A stretch of 11,872 nucleotides of DNA from Bdellovibrionia bacterium (GTDB lineage Bacteria; Bdellovibrionota; UBA1018): positions 1 through 11,872 of the forward strand of contig JBJMMA010000160.1 in NCBI GenBank assembly GCA_045805065.1. The letters are read 5' to 3'. Of the stretch, positions 6,283 through 10,991 are shown one piece after another. The translations under genes were made by a program, and so were the position numbers. The notes beneath the pieces are model-generated. The model saw only the letters and a list, made by a program, of their open reading frames with translations. It ran no database searches and had not been told where the DNA came from. The first letter of the stretch is position 1. Each line of letters opens with the position of its first letter.

Positions 6283-6687
6283 TTAATCCAGAAAAAGCGC
6301 GCGCTCGTCAGGCGATGGTAATCGACATGTCTCGCGCTTTCCAAACCAGCGATAGCGATTACGCGCGATGAAGCGATAGATGGGATCGCGAACAAAACCT
6401 GGGATTACTCGCAAAAGTACAGTCAGCCGCCATGCCCCGCCCAAGCTGCTCAAAATTCGGAGCACAGCCAAAGACTCGGAAGAAGTCGATCCATTCTGAT
6501 AAAAAACCACAGACTCTAACTTTTCCCCGGCGCCGAGGCCAAGTAAGTCACGGGACGTTTTTCCCTGCAAAGAAGCGAAACGCAAAACTCGGCGATGGTC
6601 CTGGCGGACCAAAAAGTCCACAAACCCATTGCAGAGGTTGCAGACGCCGTCGAAAAACACGATGGAGGAGGGTATTTCTCTATCCAT
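6283..6687 (-). CDS. Thiol-disulfide oxidoreductase, DCC family (DUF393/YuxK-like)
   Basis: 'VFFDGVCNLCNGFVDFL', 'RFASLQ', 'RDPIYRFIARNRYRWFGKRETCRLP' are diagnostic for the family. Confidence 0.93.
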   Translation of the reverse strand: MDREIPSSIVFFDGVCNLCNGFVDFLVRQDHRRVLRFASLQGKTSRDLLGLGAGEKLESVVFYQNGSTSSESLAVLRILSSLGGAWRLTVLLRVIPGFVRDPIYRFIARNRYRWFGKRETCRLPSPDERALFLD

Positions 6688-6743
6688 ACCTATTCAGGGT
6701 ATCATATATCTTTAGGCGATCTAAAGTTTAAGGGGAGCGGCTC

Positions 6744-7253
6744 ATGGCCCAGAACAAATTTCAGTTTCGCTTTCAACTCACTGAAGACCAGTTCAGAGAG
6801 GCGCATCGCGCCTATTTGCGACACTCGCTGCTAACGGTCAAAAACCTCTTCATGGTCACCATCGCGCTCCTCATCGGCTTGGTCCAGGCGCAACTCTTTG
6901 GTCAGGCCAATTGGGTCCTTTGGATCTTTGGCGGGGCCTGGCTTGCGGTCGTGGGGCTCTGCTTCTTTGTCTACTTCTGGATGCCGGGGAAAATCTTTCG
7001 GGCGCGCCCAAGCCTCTCAGCGCCTCAGGCCGTTCAGGTGGATCAAGAAGGCCTCGATTGGAAGTCCGGGGAGAAGCATCGCCTGATCGCCTGGAAAGAG
7101 ATCAAACGGGCGTCTGATATCCATCCGGAATATGTCTATTTTCATCCTCATCACGGACTTCCGGAGATCCTTCCCAAGAGCGTTTTCCGCTCGGATGAGG
7201 AACTTCAGGGCTTTGATCGGTTTGTTCAAAACTGTCTTCATCCGGATAGTTAG
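6744..7253 (+). CDS. YcxB-family membrane protein
   Basis: Two transmembrane helices followed by a soluble domain with 'IAWKEIKR' and 'ILPKSVFRSDEELQGF'; AAGGGGAG RBS at 6730-6737. Confidence 0.75.
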   Translation: MAQNKFQFRFQLTEDQFREAHRAYLRHSLLTVKNLFMVTIALLIGLVQAQLFGQANWVLWIFGGAWLAVVGLCFFVYFWMPGKIFRARPSLSAPQAVQVDQEGLDWKSGEKHRLIAWKEIKRASDIHPEYVYFHPHHGLPEILPKSVFRSDEELQGFDRFVQNCLHPDS

Positions 7254-7291
7254 TCAGACAGTGAAATAATGGGCACCCGATAGAGTCAGGC

Positions 7292-7320
7292 TTGACCCTA
7301 GGCGGCAGGATTGCTAGATA
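7292..7320 (+). promoter_or_regulatory. Candidate sigma70 promoter giving a leaderless DHS-like mRNA
   Basis: TTGACC(7292-7297)-17 bp-TAGATA(7315-7320), with an extended TG at 7312-7313; ATG is 7 nt downstream; the -10 box is imperfect. Confidence 0.4.
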
Positions 7321-7327
7321 GCTGTCC

Positions 7328-8308
7328 ATGACTCAAAATATGGGACCGATTTCTCAGTTTATTAAGCACCACTATCGCCATTTCAATTCGGCAGCCCTTG
7401 TTGACGCTGCTGAGGGTTACAAGACCCATATTGATCAGGGCGGAAAGATGATGATCACGCTCGCTGGCGCCATGAGCACGGCTGAGCTTGGACTTTCTTT
7501 GGCTGAGATGATTCGCCAGGACAAGGTCCACCTGATCAGCACCACCGGTGCAAACTTGGAAGAAGATATCTTCAATCTCGTCGCGCACGATCACTACGAG
7601 CGCGTTCCTAACTATCGCGATCTCACCCCACAAGACGAGCAAAAGCTCCTCGATCGCCACTTGAACCGCGTCACCGACACCTGCATTCCAGAAGGTGAAG
7701 CCATGCGCCGTATCGAAGGTGCGATGCTTGAAGAGTGGACGACCGCTGACAAGAAGGGCGAGCGCTACTTCCCACACGAATTTTTCTATCGCCTGATCAA
7801 GAAGGGCGCTTTGAAGCAGTATTATCAAATCGACCCAAAGAACAGCTGGATGGTCGCTGCTGCTGAGAAGAACATTCCAATCGTCTGCCCAGGTTGGGAA
7901 GACGCAACTCTTGGAAACATGTTCGCAGCTGCTGTCATGCGCGGTGACGTGAAGAACGTTCACACCGTCCGCACCGGCATCGAGTACATGATCAACTTGG
8001 CTGAGTTCTATCAATCCGCAACCAAGAACAACTCTTTGGGCATGTTCCAGATCGGTGGCGGTATCGCAGGTGACTTCCCAATTTGCGTGGTTCCAATGCT
8101 TCATCAAGACATGAACATTGAAGCTCGCCTCTGGGGCTACTTCTGCCAGATCTCTGACTCGACGACGAGCTATGGCTCTTACTCGGGCGCAGTGCCAAAC
8201 GAGAAGATCACCTGGGGTAAGCTCGGCATTGATACGCCGAAGTTCATCATTGAGTCGGACGCAACGATCGTTGCTCCATTGATGTTCGCTTACATCTTGG
8301 GACAATAG
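7328..8308 (+). CDS. Deoxyhypusine synthase-like protein (bacterial DHS family; probably polyamine/homospermidine-type synthesis)
   Basis: 'TLAGAMSTAELG', 'STTGANLEEDIFN', 'IGGGIAGDF', 'SYSGAVPNEKITWGK' (retains the catalytic Lys of the WGK motif), 'ESDATIVAPL'. Confidence 0.93.
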   Translation: MTQNMGPISQFIKHHYRHFNSAALVDAAEGYKTHIDQGGKMMITLAGAMSTAELGLSLAEMIRQDKVHLISTTGANLEEDIFNLVAHDHYERVPNYRDLTPQDEQKLLDRHLNRVTDTCIPEGEAMRRIEGAMLEEWTTADKKGERYFPHEFFYRLIKKGALKQYYQIDPKNSWMVAAAEKNIPIVCPGWEDATLGNMFAAAVMRGDVKNVHTVRTGIEYMINLAEFYQSATKNNSLGMFQIGGGIAGDFPICVVPMLHQDMNIEARLWGYFCQISDSTTSYGSYSGAVPNEKITWGKLGIDTPKFIIESDATIVAPLMFAYILGQ

Positions 8309-8361
8309 TTCGAGTTAAAAGTTAGCCCGGCGGCTTTCGCCGCGTATTGGCATACTTTAAG

Positions 8362-8412
8362 AAGCTCCTTTTTTGATCAGCGAAAGCTGCGCAAGAAAGG
8401 AGCTTTTTGTTT
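8362..8412 (+). terminator. Long hairpin with GAAA tetraloop and U-tract; overlaps the RBS of the DUF1059 gene
   Basis: AAGCTCCTTTTTTG(8362-8375) pairs with CAAGAAAGGAGCTT(8392-8405) with one G-U pair; inner CAGC-GAAA-GCTG; followed by TTTGTTT. Confidence 0.6.
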
Positions 8413-8667
8413 ATGGCCAATCTTCAGGCGATCAAATCAGAAAAAAGGAAAGTAGCCGACTGTCGGGACTTTCCAAGCGAGTCCAACTGCACGCTGACAA
8501 TTTCTGGCAAAGAAAACGAAGTGCTGGACGCTGCCACCGACCATGCCGTTAAAGTTCATGGGCATCAGAACTCACCGGAGCTTCGGGATCAGATCCGTAA
8601 AATGCTGAAAGATGAAACTCCGGATCAGACTGGAATGGGTGAAGGTCCACTTCATCAGGTTGCTTGA
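8413..8667 (+). CDS. DUF1059 domain small protein (predicted metal-binding)
   Basis: 'DCRDFPSESNCTLTISGKENEVLDAATDHAVKVHGH' has the C..C..H..H pattern; AAGGAG at 8397-8402 supports ATG 8413 over TTG 8407. Confidence 0.85.
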   Translation: MANLQAIKSEKRKVADCRDFPSESNCTLTISGKENEVLDAATDHAVKVHGHQNSPELRDQIRKMLKDETPDQTGMGEGPLHQVA

Positions 8668-8675
8668 GTAAAAGT

Positions 8676-9671
8676 TCAAGCGGCTCGGCGCCGCTCTTCT
8701 TCCTCAATATTCGGATGAATGACCCAGACAGGGTTTGTCGAGTTTCGAAGGACTTGTCGAGTCACGCTGCCCAGGACCTGAGCCTCCAAGCGAGTGCTTT
8801 CGCCGGCCATCGCAATCAGGCAAGGGGAGCGGCGTGACTCTTTGAGAATGGAAGCCGCAACGGGTTCTCCAAGGTGATAATCAATGATGGCGTCCGCCTG
8901 GATATTGGCATGACGGGCTTCTCGGCACCATTGTTCAGCGGCTTGGCGGCTGACTTCGATTTCAGCTTCCCGAGCTTCCTCCGAGAGCGAGACCATGGAG
9001 ATTGCGGCTTCAGGCATCACCGCAAGTCCCATCGAGATTTTGTGAAAGAGGGTCACATGAGCTTTCATGCTCCGAGCAAAGGGGAGCAGCTGGATGAAGG
9101 CGCGATGAGACTCTTCTGAAAAATCAGTTGGAAACAGGATTCGCTCAAACCACTGCGAAACCGGTTTTTTAGGATCATCCTTGACGGGATTCCAATGAGG
9201 ATTGACTGCCAGAAGCGGCAGGTCGCAGAACAAACTGAGAGTCTCAACAAAGCTTCCGAACAGCCAGCGAGACGGCCCCTTGCGAGCCTTCGTGCTGGCA
9301 ACGATGAGATCAGCAGTCTCGCGATGAGCAAAAGTGAGAAGCTCCGTGATCTGCTCGCGCAGAGAGGATCCCGTTGGCCCGATGATTTGAATGGGCTTCA
9401 AGCCATTCATTCGAGAAATGCCCACTGCGCCGAGCCATGCATCGATTTCTTCTTGGGCTTCATCGGCAAGCGCACGATTGAAGCCTTCGCGCTGCTCGGG
9501 AGCGATCTGATGACGCGGGTCTGAGGCAACATACACCGGAAGAATATAGGCAGATTGCCTCTGCGTGATGGCTTTGATCGCCAAAATGGTGGATTGCTGC
9601 GCATCGCCTTGCGGCGCGAAAGGATCTATCGCCCAGATAATCCGTGTTTGAGGCAAGGGTTGCTTTGGCAT
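8676..9671 (-). CDS. Universal stress protein with two tandem USP domains
   Basis: Domain 1: 'RIIWAIDPF...ADLIVASTKARKG...LFGSFVETL'. Domain 2: 'RILFPTDFSEES...LGSVTRQVLRNSTNPVWVI'. Start moved to ATG 9671 because the track's 9878 overlaps the CLC gene. Confidence 0.9.
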   Translation of the reverse strand: MPKQPLPQTRIIWAIDPFAPQGDAQQSTILAIKAITQRQSAYILPVYVASDPRHQIAPEQREGFNRALADEAQEEIDAWLGAVGISRMNGLKPIQIIGPTGSSLREQITELLTFAHRETADLIVASTKARKGPSRWLFGSFVETLSLFCDLPLLAVNPHWNPVKDDPKKPVSQWFERILFPTDFSEESHRAFIQLLPFARSMKAHVTLFHKISMGLAVMPEAAISMVSLSEEAREAEIEVSRQAAEQWCREARHANIQADAIIDYHLGEPVAASILKESRRSPCLIAMAGESTRLEAQVLGSVTRQVLRNSTNPVWVIHPNIEEEERRRAA

Positions 9672-9685
9672 CCGTTTGCTCAATG

Positions 9686-9701
9686 AGCATGAGCTATGCC
9701 A
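9686..9701 (-). promoter_or_regulatory. Candidate sigma54 -24/-12 promoter for the USP gene
   Basis: Minus strand TGGCATAGCTCATGCT: GG(9700-9699)-N10-GC(9688-9687). Confidence 0.45.
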
Positions 9702-9737
9702 CTGGAGTCCTGCGTTAGCTTCGGTTATCCTGAGCAG

Positions 9738-10991
9738 GTGAAATCCGAACAAACCCAGATCCTTCCAGCCGTTGTGTTTTGGACACTTCTTGCCGCCGTT
9801 GTAGGAGTATTTGGAGGGGCTGCGTCGGCCGGATTTCTCTGGCTCCTGAATTGGGCTACCGAAATGCGAGAGTCCCATCTTTGGCTCATTGCGCTCTTGC
9901 CTCTAGCAGGGCTTTTCATCGGGATTGTTTTTCACACGATCGGTAAATCGATCGAGCGAGGCAATAATCTTCTGATCGATGAGATTCATGATCCCAGAGC
10001 GCAAATTCCGTTTCGGATGGCGCCACTGATTTTGTTCTCAACCGTTGTTACCCATCTTTTTGGTGGATCGGCAGGCCGAGAAGGAACGGCAGTTCAAATG
10101 TCGGGCGCCATTGCCGATCAGTTCAGCTTTTTGAATCGTGTTCTTCCGTCCGCTGATCCGACCCGAAACCGCCGCATCTTGCTCATGGCCGGTATGAGCG
10201 CTGGCTTTGGTTCCATTTTTGGAACCCCCATCGCAGGCGCGATCTTTGGTCTCGAAGTGCTCAATATCGGACGGATGGATTACGAGGCAATCCTGCCTTG
10301 CTTTGTCGGATCCATTGTCGGTGACTATGTGACCGAGACTTTAGGCGCGATGATCGGAGTGCATCACTCACCGATGGCAAGCCTCGTGCCTGATGTCACT
10401 GTCGGTCCCGTGAGCCTGAATGCGCTTGCGCTTTGTGCGGTTGCTGGAATCATCTTCGGGCTTGTGGGAATGGTCTTCTCAAGTGCCAGCCATGCCATGA
10501 ACGCCCTCTTTAAAAGAGCGGTCCAGCATGCGCCTTTAAGACCGTTTGTGGGCGGCATCATCGTTGCGCTCATGGTGTATGCAAGTGGCAGCACTCGTTA
10601 CATTGGTCTGGGTGTTCCTGTGATCATGGAATCTTTTCAGCATCCCGTTCTACCCTGGGATTTTGCCGGAAAGATCATTTTCACTGTCCTTACTCTAGGT
10701 GCAGGCTTCAAGGGTGGGGAAGTGACTCCGCTCTTTTACATCGGATCAACGCTTGGAAACGCGCTCTCGCTCATTCTGCCATTGCCGTTGCCCTTGTTAG
10801 CCGCCGTTGGATTTGTCGGAGTATTTGCTGGCGCCGCCAATACGCCGCTGACCTGCATCTTGATGGCCTCTGAGCTCTTTGGCTCACAGGTCATGATCTT
10901 TGCGGCCGTTGCGTGCGTGGCAAGCTACCTCTTTTCAGGACATGCGGGAATTTATCACGCTCAGCGCGTTGCCTTCAGGAAGCATGGCTGA
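9738..10991 (+). CDS. eriC: CLC-family anion transporter, fluoride-specific CLC-F clade (F-/H+ antiporter, EriC-type)
   Basis: CLC-F signature motifs GNNLL, GREGT and GEVTP, plus C-terminal 'SGHAGIY'. Start uncertain: GTG 9738 preferred, ATG 9696 possible. Confidence 0.88.
   Translation: MKSEQTQILPAVVFWTLLAAVVGVFGGAASAGFLWLLNWATEMRESHLWLIALLPLAGLFIGIVFHTIGKSIERGNNLLIDEIHDPRAQIPFRMAPLILFSTVVTHLFGGSAGREGTAVQMSGAIADQFSFLNRVLPSADPTRNRRILLMAGMSAGFGSIFGTPIAGAIFGLEVLNIGRMDYEAILPCFVGSIVGDYVTETLGAMIGVHHSPMASLVPDVTVGPVSLNALALCAVAGIIFGLVGMVFSSASHAMNALFKRAVQHAPLRPFVGGIIVALMVYASGSTRYIGLGVPVIMESFQHPVLPWDFAGKIIFTVLTLGAGFKGGEVTPLFYIGSTLGNALSLILPLPLPLLAAVGFVGVFAGAANTPLTCILMASELFGSQVMIFAAVACVASYLFSGHAGIYHAQRVAFRKHG

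Follow-up and report, generated by a model that had tools for sequence, protein, structure and literature searches.

A terminator-like hairpin that buries the ribosome-binding site of a DUF1059 gene in a Bdellovibrionia genome

The 104-nt gap between a deoxyhypusine-synthase-like (DHS-like) gene and a small DUF1059 gene of Bdellovibrionia bacterium (contig JBJMMA010000160.1, analyzed over a window of 11,872 nucleotides) contains a long hairpin, B, that probably combines two functions, acting as the Rho-independent terminator of the DHS unit and as a mask over the ribosome-binding site (RBS) of DUF1059, a default-off gate with no ligand sensor in cis. One hairpin could do both jobs because its 3′ arm carries the Shine-Dalgarno (SD) of the next gene. 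An initial annotation of the sequence had proposed a two-hairpin switch in this gap, with an upstream hairpin, A, competing for the top of B. Its coordinates for the hairpins, the SD, the U-tract, and the ATG all agree with the sequence. The features are listed below; G000 denotes the genome under study (94% complete) and G001 the only other species of the genus.

7328–8308, plus strand: DHS-like gene (Pfam PF01916, E = 6.6e-44), upstream of the gap, its transcript extending into hairpin B
8330–8343, plus strand: hairpin A, GCGGC-UUUC-GCCGC, −8.3 kcal/mol, with no U-tract behind it
8347–8376, plus strand: 30-nt block identical in G000 and G001, made up of 11 unpaired nt, TTGGCATACTT, and the 5′ arm of hairpin B
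8358–8409, plus strand: hairpin B, terminator-like and RBS-occluding, −30.1 kcal/mol
8380–8390, plus strand: 3′ strand of the alternative A/B helix (partner 8330–8340), not conserved
8397–8402, plus strand: SD AAGGAG of DUF1059, in the 3′ arm of B, paired with CTCCTT (8365–8370)
8404–8412, plus strand: U-tract TTTTTGTTT, immediately 3′ of the GC-rich stem portion
8413–8667, plus strand: DUF1059 gene, 84 aa (Pfam PF06348, 34.9 bits versus a cut-off of 21.1)

Hairpin B and the DUF1059 ribosome-binding site

The gap is strongly structured, as had been noted: the MFE of 8309–8420 is −51.0 versus −29.97 ± 3.12 for 200 dinucleotide shuffles (z = −6.74), and 0/200 of these fold as well as the native sequence. 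Hairpin B begins 50 nt past the DHS-like stop codon (TAG, 8306–8308) on the same strand. The lower stem of B comprises 18 bp (8358–8375/8392–8409) and leads through a 2×2 internal loop into the cap CAGC-GAAA-GCTG (8378–8381/8386–8389), with the GAAA loop at 8382–8385. The base of the stem is GC-rich (GGAGC/GCUCC) and adjoined by U5GU3, which is the anatomy of an intrinsic terminator. The GAAA cap, the buried AAGGAG, and the U-tract before ATG 8413 are all present, as annotated. This ATG lies directly 3′ of the U-tract and is the sole canonical in-frame start of DUF1059 in G000 and G001.

B sequesters the DUF1059 RBS and therefore must gate expression of this gene in cis, presumably through a block of translation. 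In the model of B, the mean pairing probability of the RBS drops from 0.999 at 37 °C to 0.997 at 55 °C and 0.983 at 75 °C. Temperature, which had been named as a possible signal, does not melt the RBS hairpin in the physiological range of this model (followed to 75 °C); an RNA thermometer was rejected, the RBS still being 98% paired at 75 °C and the hairpin far too stable. Among 597 RBS-burying hairpins (from 4110 crude ORFs) B is an outlier in stability, ranking third.

Judged from this anatomy, B would halt most DHS-like transcripts at the U-tract (8404–8412), before ATG 8413. The same hairpin would keep the DUF1059 RBS paired, and translation blocked, in any read-through transcripts. By default DUF1059 would be silent and shielded from DHS expression, and a trans factor or a ribosome event might relieve the block.

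A tool scan of 6500–10000 found no sigma-70-type promoter. The DHS-like gene is preceded by a conserved promoter-like sequence, TTGACC-17-TAGATA, that ends 7 nt before its ATG, and DHS together with B can thus be read as a self-contained unit. Two further starts for DUF1059 were considered and rejected. Sigma-54 promoters have the spacing GG-N10-GC, and the candidate at TGGCAT has GA where GC is needed and a spacing that does not fit. A leaderless start at ATG 8413 lacks a −10-like hexamer at the right distance. Among contigs from public reads (4 of 21 listed runs), DNA contig X1 (8120–8486) spans the gap with 0 differences, X3, X10, and X11 leave 8326–8433 uncovered, and the RNA contigs end by 8299.

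The DHS-like protein is 96% identical to its G001 ortholog and matches the NCBIfam homospermidine and deoxyhypusine synthase models below their cut-offs. The DUF1059 protein carries an N-terminal extension of ~12 aa relative to other homologs. Its pN of 0.104, with synonymous sites saturated (56 core codons), indicates that the gene is under purifying selection, and some route to its expression must therefore exist. That route is left unexplained by a constitutive terminator with a buried RBS.

Conservation and distribution of hairpin B

The comparison of orthologs rests on a single congener, G001, in which the order DHS, B, U-tract, and ATG of DUF1059 is the same. In G001, B is a perfect 23-bp helix of −32.1 kcal/mol capped by a GAGA loop, with U7 and ATG behind it. 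The two hairpins are identical at 43/52 nt. At five of the eight changed pair positions a one-sided exchange (U-A/U-G or G-C/G-U) leaves the pair intact, two are mismatches that become pairs in G001, and a terminal U-G is the sole loss; strict covariation amounts to 0 pairs changed on both sides between G000 and G001, alifold included. The loop is GNRA in both species (GAAA and GAGA). Minus-strand folds are weaker (−22.3 and −21.2, ~8–11 kcal/mol less), which argues that the plus-strand RNA is the thing kept.

The background against which B is conserved has diverged widely: 60/136 four-fold sites of DHS differ, other coding genes are 0.68–0.74 identical in DNA, and the spacer at 8309–8346 retains 4/38 positions (0.11). 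With divergence this close to saturation, the conservation of B reflects more than recent common ancestry. Fold and ortholog comparison together support the part of the initial annotation that concerned B itself, a plus-strand hairpin with terminator anatomy that sequesters the DUF1059 RBS. Just 26 nt separate the DHS stop from the base of B in G001, which leaves no room for an aptamer.

B looks like the ordinary intrinsic terminators of its genome in size and style. A genome scan yielded 1379 terminator-like hairpins from 11271 T-tract candidates; 174 hairpins of −16 kcal/mol or stronger lie 0–60 nt after a same-strand stop, and many of these have 15–22-bp stems with an A-tract. The simple scan, whose rule is one gapless stem around a 3–8 nt loop, did not list B because the internal loop breaks that rule. 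A position no more than 15 nt from a downstream same-strand start is found for 15/1146 terminator-like hairpins. Eight terminators were chosen for comparison, of which three have no DNA match in G001, one matches on one flank, and four could be compared. Hairpin identity between the species is 0.82, 0.69, 0.57, and 0.30 for these four and 0.83 for B, and a strong hairpin is retained in 3/4; by this measure of sequence, B is conserved no better than the best of the four. Terminator-plus-RBS as a genome-wide design was rejected: a strong RBS-burying hairpin is present at 6/75 starts with a T-rich spacer (8%) versus 193/2211 others (8.7%), with no enrichment.

The initial annotation could not match the element to a known riboswitch class, and Rfam gave 0 matches at gathering scores in the whole window. 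At E up to 10, six hits in 8200–8520 fall far below gathering scores and were dismissed as noise; they comprise microRNA precursor models, a Streptococcus sRNA model, and SAM-SAH at 11.4 bits (minus strand, inside DHS). A covariance model of the element, R1, hit nothing in 41 genomes beyond the two orthologous loci apart from a single match at E = 0.9, and gave 0 hits in 183 further loci. Upstream regions of DUF1059 genes, which the initial annotation had suggested gathering, spoke against a wider family: 0/123 distinct homolog regions have a T-rich tail, and no shared motif was found upstream of these 123 other genes. The element is absent from 160 DUF1059 loci (the best 80 of 264 relatives on metagenome contigs and the best 80 of 171 on genome contigs). 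Most named genome records among the DUF1059 relatives listed are actinobacterial (Streptomyces, Acidimicrobiia). Within these searches, the element appears to be confined to one locus in one genus. A repeat element was rejected, since the genome holds one copy each of the 104-nt gap, hairpin A, and the 30-nt block. Overall, the evidence points to a conventional terminator or gate and away from a new class of riboswitch.

Hairpin A and the alternative pairing

Hairpin A is present where it had been placed and can be extended by GCC/GGC (8325–8351, −12.1 kcal/mol). It is absent from G001, whose spacer is 27 nt shorter; as judged by this comparison, hairpin A is a species-specific addition outside the conserved device. 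The 11-bp helix between 8330–8340 and 8380–8390, with one G-U, also exists (duplex energy −21.0 kcal/mol). In the switch envisaged earlier, this helix would act in cis as an antiterminator or RBS unmasker, possibly in response to a ligand. We regard that as highly improbable. Few shuffles reach the energy of the helix (9/1000 of the 49-nt spacer, 23/1000 of the 200 nt upstream), as do 7/2000 random genomic 49-mers, these rarity figures all being post hoc; in G001, however, the top of B forms a −20.7 kcal/mol duplex with an unrelated coding segment, showing that duplexes of such strength arise by chance. The helix is favored over hairpin A at equilibrium only in a truncated nascent RNA (8309–8391), with a pair probability of 0.69–0.71 versus 0.28, and a kinetic effect specific to the G000 species is conceivable in this model. 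In the full-length leader, in contrast, forcing the helix gives −28.3 versus −46.9 kcal/mol, a cost of 18.6 kcal/mol.

The geometry of the locus argues against the switch as well. The helix had been thought to weaken the SD/terminator stem, yet it involves none of the 18 bp around the RBS and U-tract. A pseudoknot between the helix and this stem would leave a 1-nt linker (8391) to cross the 11-bp helix, which we judge sterically implausible by general pseudoknot geometry. The complementarity of the UUUC and GAAA loops, on which the proposal drew, is not kept: the change from GAAA to GAGA in G001 retains the GNRA loop and breaks the match to UUUC. A conservation test set in advance likewise failed, hairpin A and the A–B pairing both being missing from G001 although this species retains B, the U-tract, and the ATG, and the lack of an Rfam match points the same way. 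No alternative partner for either arm of B is conserved in both species within 200 nt upstream and 100 nt downstream. An antiterminator within the DHS 3′ end was rejected, the best partners for the B arms there reaching only −9 to −14 kcal/mol; the fold of this end (8084–8308) has z = −2.59, and alifold found no two-sided pair changes. To judge from the orthologs, it is only the RBS-burying terminator hairpin, and not hairpin A, that is under selection. An attractive two-hairpin switch drawn from one sequence thus dissolved once a single ortholog was compared.

Routes to DUF1059 expression and related systems

What remains is a small, selected gene behind a strong terminator that hides its RBS, with no visible promoter or sensor. 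Its expression might depend on read-through together with a leader ORF, on a processing enzyme, or on a hidden promoter. The first and the last meet in the conserved block, which is 30/30 identical between the species and ranks 7th by length among exact matches of the window to the G001 contig. The block reads as a 9-codon ORF from TTG 8347 to TGA 8374–8376 (MAYFKKLLF), the same in G001, so that a short ORF lies over the 5′ arm of B as in attenuators of the erm/cat type. It also contains an extended −10-like sequence, TGGCATACT (8348–8356), in both species. The unpaired 11 nt upstream of B (8347–8357) show no change between the species, a conservation that a terminator by itself leaves unaccounted for, although one of the comparison terminators, C246, too has an identical 11-nt stretch just upstream.

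A ribosome on the leader ORF (8347–8376) might prevent B from forming. The ORF spans 8358–8376, the 5′ arm, and a ribosome there would bring about read-through and at the same time free the DUF1059 RBS. Identity between the species starts exactly at the TTG and stops exactly at the in-frame TGA, with positions 8344–8346 and 8377 on either side differing in G001, and translation of the block would account for the conserved unpaired 11 nt. We nevertheless consider ribosome-mediated attenuation unlikely. TTG is a weak start, no GGAG, GAGG, or AGGA occurs within 16 nt upstream of it in either species, and its spacing from the DHS stop differs between the species (38 nt versus 13 nt). Pairing rules already account for the conservation of the 5′ arm, since a U facing A or G is not free to change, and the plain terminator C246 weakens the argument from the 11 nt upstream. 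The coincidence of boundaries was noticed post hoc, and two identical sequences carry no synonymous versus non-synonymous signal. The fuller proposal, a sensor-less B gate opened by ribosomes on the 9-codon ORF that couples DUF1059 synthesis to translation status, is rather improbable. If true, it would represent a leader-peptide attenuator that starts at TTG, lacks an RBS of its own, and has a terminator containing the RBS of the target gene, and it would tie DUF1059 to the state of translation behind the DHS-like gene, a gene of the polyamine pathway.

Transcription from a promoter of its own overlapping the element, with B mainly an insulator, is an equally doubtful source of DUF1059 mRNA. 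The start would lie near 8363, at the base of B, with TGGCATACT as an extended −10, or at an unrecognized promoter inside B. An mRNA that starts inside B would lack the anti-RBS arm and be translatable while DHS read-through stayed silent; TGGCATACT is the only promoter-like word near DUF1059 common to both species and falls within the perfectly conserved block; and silencing by CT-rich anti-Shine-Dalgarno motifs has a precedent at sigma-54 promoters (bioRxiv 10.1101/086108). However, a start near 8363 leaves the whole hairpin and U-tract in the transcript, the hexamers 16–18 nt after TTGGCA inside B (TTTTTT, TTTTTG, TTTTGA) offer no acceptable −10, and the scan of 6500–10000 gave no sigma-70 match. 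It is very unlikely that B is opened or used by a trans factor, be it RNase III, whose cut would free the RBS, an sRNA or protein that binds the 5′ arm, or an sRNA derived from the DHS 3′ UTR and B with UUGGCAUACUU as its seed. The B helix of 22–23 bp, about two turns, in both species, the RNase III gene in the genome, and the conserved unpaired 11-mer directly upstream of the terminator hairpin are consistent with such factors. Against them, RNase III is nearly universal and its presence little informative, Hfq (PF17209) was not found in the genome (94% complete), and the covariance model finds no second or related element in 41 genomes. Learning how DUF1059 comes to be expressed from behind the proposed default-off terminator and mask would reveal the way in which horizontally mobile small genes are connected to a host operon.

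Hairpin B shares features with several known systems. Like RNA thermometers it holds an RBS in a hairpin, but it is far too stable to be one. In some riboswitch and attenuator expression platforms a single hairpin is both terminator and RBS sequestor. B likewise combines termination and RBS occlusion directly upstream of an ORF; unlike those platforms, it has no aptamer or sensor domain, Rfam match, or conserved alternative pairing. Levy et al. (bioRxiv 10.1101/086108) reported CT-rich anti-Shine-Dalgarno motifs at sigma-54 promoters that silence read-through transcripts. As in those insulators, CT-rich CTCCTTTTTT pairs with the RBS from 25–30 nt upstream, and expression by read-through from the upstream unit would be suppressed. 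In contrast to those motifs, the CT-rich segment of B is an arm of a long terminator hairpin and not part of a sigma-54 promoter, and the scan of 6500–10000 found no dedicated downstream promoter. Control of inhibitory stem-loops by leader peptides is established for erm genes (PMC5118997). The B locus resembles erm/cat attenuation in having a very short ORF over the 5′ arm of an RBS-hiding stem-loop, but the candidate leader starts with TTG and lacks its own RBS, its translation and any stalling are putative, and DUF1059 is no resistance gene. The closest likeness is to canonical Rho-independent terminators: B has a stem with a GC-rich base and a U-tract shortly after the end of a same-strand gene, and its fold persists across species even as the sequence drifts. 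Unlike them, it holds a perfect AAGGAG in its 3′ arm, and the next ATG adjoins its U-tract.

Anatomy of the DHS–DUF1059 gap

Hairpin B, which spans the end of the gap between the DHS-like and DUF1059 genes, is probably an intrinsic terminator that closes a self-contained DHS unit and also occludes the DUF1059 ribosome-binding site, with no ligand sensing in cis. Contig C160, which makes up the window, comes from a 4.22-Mb genome (G000; 262 contigs, 94% complete, 51.7% G+C).

Features of the locus
7292–7320, promoter-like block of the DHS-like gene: TTGACC (7292–7297), 17-nt spacer, TAGATA (7315–7320); ends 7 nt 5′ of the DHS ATG
7328–8308, + strand, DHS-like (deoxyhypusine-synthase-like) gene; PF01916, E = 6.6e-44
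8330–8343, + strand, hairpin A; -8.3 kcal/mol, or -12.1 kcal/mol with the GCC/GGC extension
8358–8409, + strand, hairpin B; 18 bp, 2x2 internal loop, 4 bp, GAAA loop; -30.1 kcal/mol
8397–8402, + strand, AAGGAG, DUF1059 ribosome-binding site, within the 3′ arm of B
8404–8412, + strand, U-tract directly joining ATG 8413
8413–8667, + strand, DUF1059 gene; PF06348, 34.9 bits
8676–9878, - strand, convergent Usp-domain gene

All structural elements described in the initial annotation are present, and the region 8309–8420 is far more stable (-51.0 kcal/mol) than its shuffles (-29.97 ± 3.12 kcal/mol; z = -6.74, none of 200 equal). From this anatomy, B would end DHS transcription and block DUF1059 translation, so that DUF1059 would be off by default. 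The DHS unit has its own promoter-like block, conserved in the only other species of the genus (G001) as TTGACC-17-TAAAAA. No Shine-Dalgarno sequence precedes the DHS ATG (7292–7328), which suggests that the DHS mRNA is leaderless or nearly so.

Within the last 220 nt of DHS (8084–8305), synonymous change between the two species is 0.14–0.23 per identical codon, as against ~0.3–0.5 in most of the gene, and exact matches reach 47, 38 and 35 nt. The fold of this stretch has a z of only -2.59; RNA-level or promoter constraint is possible. Another exact match (37 nt, 1415–1451) crosses the MFS gene stop (TAG 1427–1429) and extends to ATG 1435, in frame of a VTT-domain ORF that lacks a Shine-Dalgarno sequence; the 7-bp hairpin AGTAGCT/AGCTACT (1417–1434) that surrounds the stop may be another conserved junction hairpin. 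In G000 only 8 nt separate the convergent DUF1059 and Usp genes, with a short GC hairpin (8679–8695) inside the Usp 3′ end; in G001 DUF1059 is followed by a long hairpin that resembles a terminator and has a T-rich tail (locus L197, about 13255–13400).

Conservation of hairpin B and the switch model

Among 40 relatives, three genomes carry a DUF1059 homologue and G001 alone has it behind DHS. The G001 DHS protein is 96% identical, yet the genomes are far diverged: DHS differs at 60 of 136 four-fold sites, neighbouring genes share 68–74% DNA identity, and only 4 of 38 positions match across 8309–8346. Parts retained against this divergence are thus held by selection. The G001 spacer is 27 nt shorter and has no hairpin A; then follow 30 nt identical to 8347–8376 and hairpin B, here 23 bp without a mismatch and capped by a GAGA loop, then U7 and ATG. 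Nine of the 52 positions of B have changed, seven of them in the stem: five are one-sided and retain the pair (U-A to U-G and back, G-C to G-U, C-G to U-G), and two close the internal loop. One further change abolishes the terminal U-G pair, and the last converts the GAAA loop to GAGA, so that the loop is GNRA in both species. Because no pair has changed on both sides, the evidence is pair-compatible drift and not strict covariation. The minus-strand fold is weaker by 8–11 kcal/mol, arguing that selection acts on the plus-strand RNA hairpin.

The initial annotation had proposed a novel RNA switch, either antiterminator/terminator or translational, built on an 11-bp helix between A and B (8330–8340 with 8380–8390). 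This helix exists; its duplex energy, -21.0 kcal/mol, is nominally uncommon (matched in 9/1000 and 23/1000 shuffles and in 7/2000 random genomic 49-mers). The switch itself is not upheld: the congener has neither hairpin A nor the loop complementarity, and the A–B pairing is unconserved, an outcome named in advance as speaking against it. Forcing the helix costs the full leader much of its stability (-28.3 versus -46.9 kcal/mol), and the helix does not reach into the 18-bp stem, which encloses the ribosome-binding site and adjoins the U-tract. Alongside this stem it would make a pseudoknot whose linker, one nucleotide long, would have to cross 11 bp, an arrangement judged implausible on general geometry. 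In G001 the top of B pairs with a DHS coding segment by chance at -20.7 kcal/mol, indicating that matches of such strength arise easily. In a truncated nascent RNA (8309–8391) the predicted A–B pair probability is ~0.7 versus 0.28 for hairpin A, so a transient, species-specific effect is possible. An RNA thermometer was excluded for hairpin B.

No Rfam family reached its gathering score, and the weaker hits were noise. A covariance model constructed from the G000 and G001 copies recovered, in 41 genomes, just its two source loci plus one match at E = 0.9, and nothing in 183 further loci. Across 123 distinct DUF1059 upstream regions from other lineages, drawn from 163 loci among the matches listed, no T-rich tail leads up to the start, and only six regions bury the ribosome-binding site in a hairpin of -20 kcal/mol or stronger. 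Across the family and order, 27 other genomes have unrelated sequence 3′ of DHS; by eye, a few of them have ordinary terminators. The element thus appears, on the genomes and loci compared, to be a single-locus feature of one genus.

Hairpin B among the terminators of the genome

A scan of G000 found 1379 terminator-like hairpins, 174 of which lie 0–60 nt past a same-strand stop at -16 kcal/mol or stronger; many of these share the 15–22-bp stems and A-tracts of B. Conservation was calibrated on the eight strongest post-stop terminators, four of which could be aligned to G001. Their hairpin identities are 0.82, 0.69, 0.57 and 0.30, and three of the four still fold into a strong hairpin, their changes including double compensatory ones; at 43/52 (0.83), B stands at the top of this range, not beyond it. 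Its added constraint is largely explained by the combined demands of ribosome-binding site, U-tract and pairing. One comparison terminator (L204, C246:2618–2663), an ordinary one, is conserved in its counterpart L212 with several double compensatory substitutions and shares with it an identical 11-nt stretch directly 5′ of the hairpin; conserved single-stranded runs of this sort ahead of terminators may be frequent in the genus.

The unusual aspect of B is its overlap with a start site. Of 597 hairpins burying a ribosome-binding site (4110 crude ORFs), just two are more stable than B, and only 15 of 1146 terminator-like hairpins have a same-strand start within 15 nt. Hairpins burying ribosome-binding sites are not enriched in T-rich spacers (6/75 versus 193/2211). 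Further start-abutting, terminator-like hairpins with a T-run occur at C208:3808–3844, C247:101–156, C219:383–434, C248:2405–2434 and C68:22051–22074, and in several of these the 3′ arm includes a GGAG-type word. Though rare, the arrangement thus recurs in G000.

Expression of the gene behind hairpin B

The DUF1059 protein is about as similar to the congener's copy (76%) as to the actinobacterial and metagenome-contig homologues (L007–L166; up to 75–76% over residues 12–70 among the matches listed), which begin ~12 residues later. Synonymous sites between the two species are saturated in DUF1059 (pS 0.89; 0.49 in adjacent DHS). The gene may have been acquired or replaced horizontally. With pN = 0.104 over 56 core codons, DUF1059 is under purifying selection and must therefore be expressed. 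It is only rarely mentioned in the parts of the literature searched.

Several candidate routes to expression of the gene behind B can be considered. The 30 identical nucleotides start precisely at a TTG and stop at an in-frame TGA, a 9-codon ORF across the 5′ arm of B that suggests opening of the hairpin by a ribosome, much as a leader peptide is described as controlling an inhibitory stem-loop in erm genes (PMC5118997); the ORF lacks its own ribosome-binding site. The extended -10-like word TGGCATACT (8348–8356), common to both species, is a promoter lead, but a transcript begun there would still include B. RNase III, which the genome encodes, could cleave the 22–23-bp helix of B. A 3′-UTR-derived sRNA is possible, although Hfq was not found in this 94% complete genome. 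CT-rich anti-Shine-Dalgarno motifs have been described as silencing read-through transcripts (bioRxiv 10.1101/086108).

Whichever route serves DUF1059, the element, read as the terminator of the DHS unit, is a further example of a familiar type, the intrinsic terminator whose hairpin also hides a ribosome-binding site. Expression platforms that combine the two functions are known.
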